The position numbers were made by a program, and so were the translations under genes. From Dimorphilus gyrociliatus (lineage: Eukaryota > Animalia > Annelida), in NCBI GenBank assembly GCA_904063045.1, contig CAJFCJ010000046.1, positions 79,369 to 143,368 on the forward strand: DNA of 64,000 bases, read 5' to 3'. The notes under the pieces are model-generated. The model did no database searches. It saw only the letters and a program-made list of their open reading frames with translations, and was not told the DNA's origin. Below are positions 46,901-50,300 of the stretch, in pieces (the stretch's first letter is position 1; each line of letters begins with the position of its first letter).

Positions 46901-47315
46901 AAAAGAACAATATAGGGAAAGAAAGAATAGAAATCTCAATCTTCCAAAATATTTTGAGGTTGATGATGAAGTATTCTTAAGAAATGATGCTGCAAGAATT
47001 GCAATAACAAAAATCCCTTCTTTAAAATGGTTAGGCCCATACCGAATAACAAAAGTCAATCATCAAAAGTGGATATATGAAATACAAATGGATGATAATA
47101 CATGCAAGTTGGTACATGGTAGCAGATTAAGACTAGCCAATGAATCTAATAAGTTGGAAACAGGGAAAGAAGCAACAACAATCTTTCACCTTGTGGAGAA
47201 GGAAATAACACACCTCCAATATCTTTCTCAGGTAGAAGGAAGAAATGACTTCCAATTCCGTTTGAAGAATCAAAAGGCCAAGAAGTCATTGCCTTGTGTG
47301 ACACAGGAGCATTGA
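43900..47315 (+). CDS. pol: Pol: aspartic protease, RT, RNase H, integrase; interrupted by seven single-base indels
   Basis: ALIDSGS (43931); [28 protein letters not shown] (44928-44939); [13 protein letters not shown] zinc finger; [20 protein letters not shown]-terminal WLGPY..VHGSRL. Confidence 0.95.
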
Positions 47316-50300
47316 GATCCTTTATTACTGAAAAAGAAATCAAGTTAATGGATGTTACAATTATGGATAAAGAAACAATTGGCTTACCAATTATAACTTC
47401 AGCTGATGGGAAAGCTTTAAAGCAAAAAGGAAGCGTAAAGCTGAATATCCAATTTGCTGGAGAAAGTATGGAACAAGAATTTATAGTTATGGAAAATCTA
47501 GACATAGCAATAATACTTGGTTGTGATTTCCTACAAACTGTGGGAGCAAACCTCAATTTTGAAGCTAAACAGTGTTCTCTCAAATTTGATAGAAGGAAAG
47601 GGAACCTGGCTGAAAGAATAAGGCAACCTCAACTAAACAAAGTCACTATAGCCATGATGGGACAGCATGACTCTTCATCAGAAAGCTCAGATAGTGATGA
47701 CTCAGAGATGGAAGTTACTAATTCTGATACTGGTTATGACACAAGCAATACTTTCAAAACAGACAGTAATTACAGTCTCAATGAACCTTCAAGCTCATCT
47801 GAAAGTGATGACACAGAAACAAATAATGAACTGGATCAAAATACAGATTCAGAGGCAAACATTATCTCTGATAGAGAAGATGAAATACCTAGTTCAGACA
47901 ATGAGTCAATAATTATTGAAAGCGAAATTATTGATATAACCCATTCTGATAATGAGTCAATAATTATTGAAGGTGAAATTATTGACATAACCCATTCAGA
48001 TAATGAGTCCCTCATAGTGGTAGATTCATCCCAAGATGAGAAAGAAAATACAAGTGATACAGACAATGAGTCAGTCATATTTTTAGATGAGACTAAAATC
48101 ATCTCTGAACAATTAGATTCCCAACAAGAAGTGGAACCACAATATATAGAGTTAGAAGATGGAATAACTATCAGAGTGGAACAACAACACAAAATTTTCA
48201 ACCATTCAACTATAGCCAACACAGGAAGAGCTAACATGAAACAGATGTTGTGGCTTCCACTAGTGATGACTGTAATGGTGATCTGTGGCTGCATCCACTC
48301 AATAACAGTCCCAAAACCATCCTACCAAGGTGCACATGTTACAAGTGCAAACATTACCTTAACATTTAAACCACCATTATACTTTTGTTCTAACCAACTA
48401 CCAAGCCAGGCATTTGATCTAGCAGATGAGCCAACTTGTAATATAGAATCACAAGAAACCAAGACAATTACAGCTGATATCTATGAATTGAACTTGGAAG
48501 AAATTGAAACAAGAGCAGTAAAATGTCAAGTGTATCTAAGAACTAATTTTTACACTTACTATTTCTTTGGAGCAAAGAAGAGGAGAATTGTTAACTCAGT
48601 TATCAAAGTAACTCATGATCAATGCAGACAGATGGTAAAAGACAAACGATCTTTTCAAGGAAAACCTTTAATGGTGAAAAGAAACACTTGGATCCACCAA
48701 GATCAGTTTCCTGCTGCCTACACATGGCCAACAACTACCAAGGTGCTGGAATACACCACAATTATCCAGTTTGGCAAAGCATATTGGCAACCTCCTAATA
48801 TGAAAATTACAACTAATCTGGACTACCTGGAAGATTGTTTACCAGGGCAGTCCTATTGTGAGACAGAAGAGGCAATTATTGTCTTTAGAAACCTCAAGAA
48901 TAATTACACACTTGGGCAACAATCACCATGGATAAAAATTAGCAACAGAATTAGTTGTATCAAATTTGCTGGTCACTATTCTTGTCCAGGGTATTCTATT
49001 CTGGACATCCCTTATCAAGATAAGTTCATTGATGGAATTGGTGGTCCTGGAACAAAAGTACTAGTACCACTGGAGGAACAGAGTTTAATACAGGAAACAA
49101 GCAAGGAACACCTATACAATTTGCTACAATATCAGAAGATTGGCAAAAATGAAGAAAAACGACTATTAAACTATCCCAATAAAGTTAAAGAACAAATTAT
49201 ACTATACAAGCGAAACAACCCCTTACCAAGTCTTAACCAATGGTACAGAGAAACAAACACAAAGTATAAACTAATGAGAAATAAAGGCACACTCAAGGAA
49301 GTTGTGATATATCATCTACAACAACCCATTAGTCCATCTTACTGGGAGCTGGATAACTATTATATCCAAGAAATGCTGCAAGCAGTCAATTGGACAAGGG
49401 CAACAAGACAATCTGTTACGATTTCAAAATATGTATACAGTGAGAAAAGAATCAAAAAGAAGGTATTACCAACATTGGGCATATGGTATAAAGGACCACC
49501 AGCCAGAGAATTTAAGATTACCTATGAAGGAATTTATTTTACTCTACACATGAGAATGGCTAAAAAGCAGATGAAGAAGGAAGCAAAACTGAAACATAAG
49601 ATAAGTAAAAACCCATACCACAAATTCCCATTGGAAATGAGAGAAGCTGCCCAAACATCTACCTTACTACATGGTATTGATTCAAATTTTAAGAATTTAA
49701 AAAAGTTTACCCAACAGCTGTCAAGTCTTCTCTGCAATCAATTTGTTCAAAGAAGCAGAATGATGGCATTACTAGCAAATTTGGATCCTCAATTGACCAC
49801 AGTGTTAACAAATGAGTTGGGAATGCACAGTAGTCAGATGGGAGAATTAGCTATAATTAAACAATGTTCACCAATAGCCTCAACAGAAGTAGTTTGTGAC
49901 TTAAGCATGATAAAAAAGAATAACAAATGTTCTCAATTTTTACTTGTCACCATGAACAACCTGCTTTTCCAAGTAGAACCAGTTACTCATGTTTTACAGC
50001 AAGTCAATCCTGAAGAGATTACCTATAATGAGTGTAAGTTTAACAAGTTATTCTACAAAACAACTCACAACCCATTAAATCCTATAAGAAACCAACCAAT
50101 GAAAGACAAAACATATGTGTATTATTCAGAAAGAGGATGCAGATTTCACACTGTGTCTGCAAAATCCATGCAGTTACATATCCACAATCACCTTTCTGAA
50201 CCAAAAATTGAAATTGCCAGATTAGCTGATCTACTCCACCATGGGGTAAAGAAGGATATTGCATACCAGCACTCAAAAATTAAGCAAGTTATCAGTTCAC

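Follow-up and report, generated by a model that had tools for sequence, protein, structure and literature searches.

A Ty3/gypsy element of Dimorphilus gyrociliatus with a second retropepsin-like domain in the frame of its env

The window, i.e., the whole 64,000-nucleotide stretch of Dimorphilus gyrociliatus DNA analysed here, contains an LTR-bounded Ty3/gypsy element (42177-51322) in which a second retropepsin-like domain (PR2) lies between integrase and env, in addition to the normal protease (PR1). The domains and their order can be read directly from the DNA, as can the absence of the window's frame breaks from short-read contigs. It can be hypothesized, at about even confidence, that the family encodes one Gag-PR1-RT-RH-IN-PR2-Env chain of about 2,650 residues, in which the motif-complete PR2 would be a dispensable passenger derived from a sister family and placed ahead of a gB-like Env.

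Layout of the element and its two proteases

Two LTRs, a primer-binding site (PBS) and a polypurine tract (PPT), by which the ICTV profile defines Metaviridae, are all present (Table 1), and pol follows the order of that family, namely protease, RT, RNase H and integrase with env downstream, PR2 being extra to it. The match of gag to Pfam PNMA (E 6e-4, 19.7 bits) is under the cut-off of 25, and the N gap takes out part of gag. Integrase is matched by Ty3 Gag-Pol (residues 123-463, E 4e-20) and, over a shorter stretch, by foamy virus integrase (E 1e-26). No chromodomain was matched after integrase in Pfam or the ESM Atlas, Chary and Hayashi having used more sensitive tools.

Table 1. Features of the element, in positions of the window.
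Feature	Position	Strand	Remarks
5' LTR	42177..42775	+	599 nt, TG...CA; 15 mismatches in 599 columns vs 3' LTR
Primer-binding site (PBS)	42780..42797	+	Starts 4 nt past the LTR
gag	42836..43890	+	Open frame; contains an assembly gap of 35 N, 43623-43657
PR1, normal protease	43890..44215	+	DSG at 43931; two breaks in the window, neither in contigs
Reverse transcriptase + RNase H	44400..45705	+	Pfam RVT_1, RT_RNaseH; four breaks in the window, none in contigs
Integrase	45708..47270	+	H2C2, core, SH3-like C-terminal part
Integrase/PR2 frame overlap	47249..47315	+	Contains the frame break seen in the window; lacks an XXXYYYZ slippery site
PR2, second retropepsin domain	47273..47590	+	DTG at 47300; Pfam, ESM Atlas, gypsy-protease profile
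Linker, acidic and Ser/Thr-rich	47633..48235	+	26% D+E, 25% S+T; 201 residues
Conserved linker-end motif	48128..48189	+	Common to a sister family (there before RT); candidate protease site
env	48236..50656	+	Met 48236, signal-like stretch 48254-48310, predicted class III ectodomain, transmembrane stretch 50444-50500, stop
Polypurine tract (PPT)	50673..50686	+	
3' LTR	50688..51322	+	635 nt

The 3' LTR holds an extra segment of 36 nt (about 50846-50881), the linker contains a 51-nt tandem repeat (47881-47982), and an inverted 100-nt LTR piece (41956-42055, 88-89%) is found just upstream of the 5' LTR. Target-site duplications are absent around the element (42170-42176 vs 51323-51330), and its divergence from a contig of short-read run X1 is unequal, with 16 differences in 986 nt to the left of the N gap vs 2 in 1808 to the right; two copies were therefore likely joined at the N gap to give the chimeric one in the window. 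Related sequences occur elsewhere in the window: 1-645 is a remnant of a sister gypsy RT/RNase H (68.5% nucleotide identity to the element; 82% amino acid identity over 33 residues to the gene model P0001), and 6808-7873 is what is left of another, related env, now broken (86% over 59 aa to P0029, 30-47% to the env of the element), near which no protease was matched. A Tc1/mariner-type transposase frame (DDE_3, HTH_Tnp_Tc3_2) is found at 879-1760, and a frame at 52061-52996 bears motifs that we take to be those of Penelope-like reverse transcriptases, with no support from Pfam.

The open frame 47249-50656 (1135 codons) opens with PR2, in which the set of retropepsin motifs is complete: DTGA at 47300-47311, a flap-like ADG, and ILGCDFL as the C-terminal hydrophobic-G-x-D. 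Two Pfam profiles are matched over their cut-offs (RVP_2, 26.7 vs 20.3; RVP, 23.4 vs 20.7) and two others under them (gag-asp_proteas, 26.7 vs 28.2; Asp_protease_2, 21.9 vs 24.3). The top ESM Atlas match (0.96) is to RVP_2 clusters, the ten best family-bearing matches all sharing family or clan, and a profile of 11 unrelated gypsy proteases gives 30.4 bits for PR2 vs 32.4 bits for the middle piece of PR1. Among PDB sequences, a retroviral-like aspartic protease is weakly matched (E 0.04). An earlier note on this DNA, which had placed a retropepsin domain between integrase and env, is thereby borne out; in the profile and structure check that it proposed, two of the four profiles (RVP_2 and RVP) exceed their cut-offs, the single-sequence model (pLDDT 34) being uninformative. 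As far as sequence goes, PR2 is confirmed as a real retropepsin-like domain with all motifs complete, its predicted fold resting on the profiles. The start of the frame is also as the earlier note described it: a TGA lies at 47246-47248, the ATG at 47245 is out of frame, and none in frame occurs from this stop to the DTG.

By GC content at codon positions, PR2 cannot be told from pol (0.27 vs 0.24-0.37). None of 7836 candidates, 624-1987 long, was matched at E 0.001 by the whole PR2-Env frame used as a protein query. Among metagenome contigs, 179 and 166 pattern matches to PR2 and env, respectively, yielded no confirmed related locus, and neither did 7 and 2 matches to env and integrase, respectively, in viral contigs.

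The Env protein has a Met of its own at 48236 and an ectodomain with 14 cysteines, followed by a transmembrane stretch; hydropathy peaks of 2.07 at 48254 and 2.69 at 50444 correspond to a putative signal and a single transmembrane stretch flanking the ectodomain. The model built from a 12-row alignment of relatives, itself devoid of a conserved stretch, is weak (pLDDT 52.8, TM under 0.3). The PDB matches listed for it by Foldseek all fall on herpesvirus gB (best E 7e-9), those in a viral library on glycoproteins of rhabdo-, chu- and herpesviruses, and Rhabdo_glycop_FD is matched by 4 of the 12 aligned relatives. The model thus suggests a class III, HSV gB-like Env, as in errantiviruses of the gB type.

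Continuity of the frame from gag to env

Between gag and env, the frame is interrupted eight times in the window. Short-read contigs of four runs (X1, X2, X3 and X5) from two studies served for comparison over 43660-50680; such contigs merge copies and lose rare variants, each covers a part of the element, and the view they give is of DNA and not of transcripts. Run X6, with short and partly unlike pieces only, was left out, the flank 37000-42100, uncovered in X1 and X2, was not read as absence, nor was contig depth taken to reflect copy number. At the same eight places, a single-letter length difference from the window is found in the contigs of all four runs, so that the eight breaks, the one between integrase and PR2 included, are missing from them, that one at full depth. 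In X1 and in X2, the main contig has eight gaps and no more, all of them within overlaps of successive open frames, for which the chance under random placement is about 6e-14. The breaks adjoin runs of 2-6 like letters, that between integrase and PR2 touching a 4-letter run, and assembly errors in repeats often sit at such runs. In the X1 and X2 contigs, the 35-N gap in gag is replaced by 167 letters, by which, judged from length, phase is preserved, although a stop may still be present among them. Of 20 substitutions between X2 and the window, 19 were classified (one next to a break was left out) as 13 silent, 6 changing and no stop, and the 12 substitution sites listed for the gag region are likewise free of stops.

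Since all eight breaks of the window are missing from the contigs of four runs and two studies, it is likely, as judged from DNA, that the family encodes a single Gag-Pol-PR2-Env chain of about 2,650 codons (about 2,652 by arithmetic alone). The single polyprotein of ~2600 aa proposed in the earlier note thus finds support at the level of the family, in the eight X1 and X2 gaps within overlaps and the lack of stops in X2. Its count of six other single-base deletions in pol needs correction to seven other frame breaks in gag-pol, together with the 35-N gap in gag. It had also joined the integrase and PR2 frames by one base added near 47249; the contigs do differ from the window in the overlap 47249-47315, but at another position, and the joined peptide it gave is therefore not what they hold.

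Over 47273-50653, 12 of the 17 X2 differences are silent vs a mean of 4.9 expected, a number reached in none of 3000 simulations. This silent excess over PR2, linker and env shows selection on that frame, mostly on env, where 9 of the 12 are found. Within PR2 itself, no difference between the window and X2 is seen in 360 nt (about 2 expected; not significant).

Origin and possible role of PR2

That PR2 arose by duplication of PR1 within the element, as the earlier note had it, is not sustained. PR1, read with X at the breaks, and PR2 share 28% identity, and their best nucleotide match extends over 47 nt (E 9e-4). Their score of 98 compares with 93 for the best unrelated protease of PR2, and as high a score is seen in 7 of the 153 unrelated pairs. 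The phylogeny that the earlier note had called for, with 13 and 21 rows, neither shows nor rejects a PR1+PR2 clade (p-AU 0.48 and 0.58). Much closer relatives of PR2 are found in sister families. P0038 is 64% identical to it and groups with it at 99/99, and a contig of X3 (record 22) includes a PR2-like piece at 47437-47547 with 17 other letters and 2 gaps. In that contig the piece is joined to 48128, the match to the window ending at 48189, and an X1 contig matches 48128-48189 only; this is the only part of the linker where sister contigs align at 85%.

By integrase, the sister of the element is P0001 (42% identity, support 100/98; RT core 60%), in which the linker end is found upstream of the RT (59% over 54 aa, E 7e-12, window 48044-48193). 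The gene model is an automatic one that lacks a protease and has an unrelated N-terminal part; that the X3 contig belongs to the P0001 family is suggested by matching break-off positions. A nucleotide likeness of about 85% in the protease, next to 42% identity between the integrase proteins, is better explained by transfer than by common descent. The close relatives of PR2 in sister families, and the linker end ahead of RT in one of them, point to capture by recombination: we infer that the sister family has protease, spacer and RT in the normal order, and that the element would have taken protease and spacer up to about 48190. In P0038, P0031 and P0001, parts of elements of this group are fused to domains of host type (in P0038, a PR2-like start to TIR_2); all three are likely artefacts of automatic annotation.

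The integrity of PR2 is not constant. The main contig of X5 (depth 677.6), a run from the other study and under another organism label, has an in-frame 60-nt skip (47328-47387) by which 20 PR2 residues directly after the catalytic motif are lost, and the mean bin depth of 509 allows for hardly any intact form in that run. This suggests that the frame to env can stay open in spite of damage to PR2, although a single event is concerned and intact copies could help in trans. Because the main X5 contig lacks these residues, PR2 is likely dispensable. A further X5 contig has a 3013-nt skip with AA..AG ends; it is not read as splicing, the piece being diverged and the run of unknown kind.

Retropepsins act as dimers, whereas the capsid protease of alphaviruses, a serine protease, works in cis as a monomer. 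The alphavirus-like processing suggested in the earlier note is therefore unlikely as stated, a cut in cis during translation being hard to expect of a dimeric enzyme; PR2 is an aspartic retropepsin without the alphavirus-type fold, and the X5 deletion also speaks against such a role. What is shared with the alphavirus capsid protease and the flavivirus capsid anchor is a cytosolic part ahead of the internal signal of a glycoprotein. Flavivirus capsid, which is cut in trans from its membrane anchor, provides the closer analogy, as a retropepsin needs to dimerize. Among possible cleavage sites, the leading candidate is the linker-end motif 48128-48189, which immediately precedes the signal.

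In the course of events that is preferred here, recombination with a sister gypsy would have inserted the protease of that family and its trailing spacer, in frame, between integrase and env. An internal signal, namely the hydrophobic stretch that follows Met 48236, would bring the chain to the ER, where Env would be freed by host signal peptidase. The cytosolic Gag-Pol-PR2, tethered to the membrane by the signal, would be cut after particle assembly by PR1 dimers, together with PR2 dimers where these are intact, possibly at the conserved linker-end motif. What selection would maintain is the open frame through PR2, on which Env depends, and not the activity of PR2. Among the observations that weigh against this reading, PR1 is still the top non-sister protease for PR2 (98 vs 93), and the absence of PR2 differences between the window and X2 also fits constraint.

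It is possible, if rather doubtful, that PR2 is instead a working protease under selection for Env release, captured with its own cleavage site in the linker-end motif and cutting Gag-Pol from the membrane-bound Env signal, a task beyond PR1, which would recognize other sites. The main support for this lies in the position of that motif, 46 nt ahead of the env Met, and in its being the only part of the linker aligned to sister contigs at 85%; the catalytic motifs are all intact, PR2 does not differ between the window and X2, and several diverged domains of its type exist (P0038, X3 record 22). Intact motifs would be left by recent capture alone, however, the X5 main contig lacks the 20 residues after the DTG at full depth, and among 21 long integrase relatives, 20 have one protease match, one has none and none has two. 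If PR2 did release Env, the element would be a two-protease retroelement with processing in the style of RNA viruses. It is improbable that PR2 is an old duplicate of PR1 within the lineage; in the boldest form of this reading, the two would pair within one chain as a pepsin-like single-chain enzyme cutting in cis. The rank of PR1 among the non-sister proteases and the p-AU values agree with such a duplication, against which stand the 28% identity, the unrelated pairs scoring as high, the place of the linker end before RT in the sister gene model, and the about 1,000 residues between PR1 and PR2.

Other explanations bear on the way Env is expressed. As in Drosophila errantiviruses, splicing could yield a subgenomic RNA that begins at Met 48236 or shortly ahead of it and serves as the main source of Env, PR2 and linker being then only the tail of Pol and the missing stop incidental. 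Env indeed has its own Met right before the signal-like stretch, its relatives P0023, P0025 and P0033 open in the same way, and splicing is the usual route to Env in insect elements, according to the part of the source available (PMC12992720). This is nonetheless unlikely, since no strong acceptor is found: the AG sites at 48215 and 48224 have modest pyrimidine tracts (at most 9 of 15 pyrimidines near), that at 47231 is also weak, and the frame is open across a 600-nt low-complexity linker and the X5 deletion. The acceptor-like site ending at 47231 in the earlier note does exist as a YAG, but it is one of nine such sites in the 7.85 kb interior and therefore not special. It is very improbable that active copies truly carry the integrase/PR2 break, with ribosomes shifting frame across it, or that PR2-env is an ORF apart. 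The break is present in the window, and the catalogue label in the part of the eLife supplement available separates GAG-POL from ENV (PMC13524379), but the break is missing in all four runs at full depth, touches a run of like letters as most of the other seven do, and lies in an overlap with no slippery heptamer.

Known systems and implications

In the parts available, the supplement of Chary and Hayashi (eLife RP108449, PMC13524379) lists Annelida_Polychaeta_Dgyr_errantivirus_1, with a gB-type env and 7 copies. It resembles the present element in its HSV/gB-type env, 635-nt 3' LTR, 4-nt gap to the PBS and interior of 8049 nt (8050 nt here), and its PBS 12-mer, one letter off the window, is the same as in the contigs; the nearest named proteins to the element bear the same species name. 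Unlike the present element, it is labelled GAG-POL and not GAG-POL-ENV, is scored with a chromodomain, of which none was matched here, and, from its region end, would have ENV annotated to a point about 1.76 kb short of the 3' LTR. The available parts of the paper text and supplements make no mention of a second protease. Dgyr_errantivirus_1 is likely this family, as judged by geometry and PBS; as to the label, some genomic copies may be truly broken, or the catalogue row may be a sister element.

An in-frame fusion of env to pol in other Ty3/gypsy elements is indicated by the labels GAG-POL-ENV or POL-ENV given to Saqu_1, Dcar_3 and Llat_2 in the same supplement as far as available (PMC13524379). 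P0016 is a single frame of 2296 aa with gag, about 800 residues that are env-like by eye, and then protease, RT and integrase, a layout that fits the GAG-ENV-POL described in the available text of that paper (PMC13524379). Atlas virus from Ancylostoma ceylanicum (Belpaoviridae) has a Gag-Pol-Env chain of 2828 residues without stops and is one of nine such elements (PMC9094657), the single chain being reported also in bioRxiv 10.64898/2026.03.22.711591; it differs in being a BEL/Pao element with a class II, phlebovirus-like Env, and in the part of the first source available no second protease is named (PMC9094657). The Drosophila errantiviruses gypsy, ZAM and Idefix share the layout LTR-gag-pol-env-LTR but have one protease and an F-type Env made from spliced RNA, in the text available (PMC12992720).

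One protease is described for Ty3/gypsy elements in the ICTV profile (PMC7879559), as it is in the available part of the Troyka paper (PMC12440569). No report of a second or duplicated protease in gypsy or other LTR elements was found in the literature searched, which included few subscription papers and not Repbase and in which wording may differ. The single chain and the gB-type env are already known, and the second protease seems to be unreported.

If PR2 is a passenger, it is of interest as a well-documented scar of recombination. Catalogues can miss layouts of this kind when the assembled repeats contain frame breaks. A multi-copy family with two proteases in the frame of env shows how modules can be gained by recombination with sister families, and the coexistence of intact PR2 with a form lacking 20 residues offers a natural test of how cytosolic and membrane proteins are separated in Gag-Pol-Env chains.
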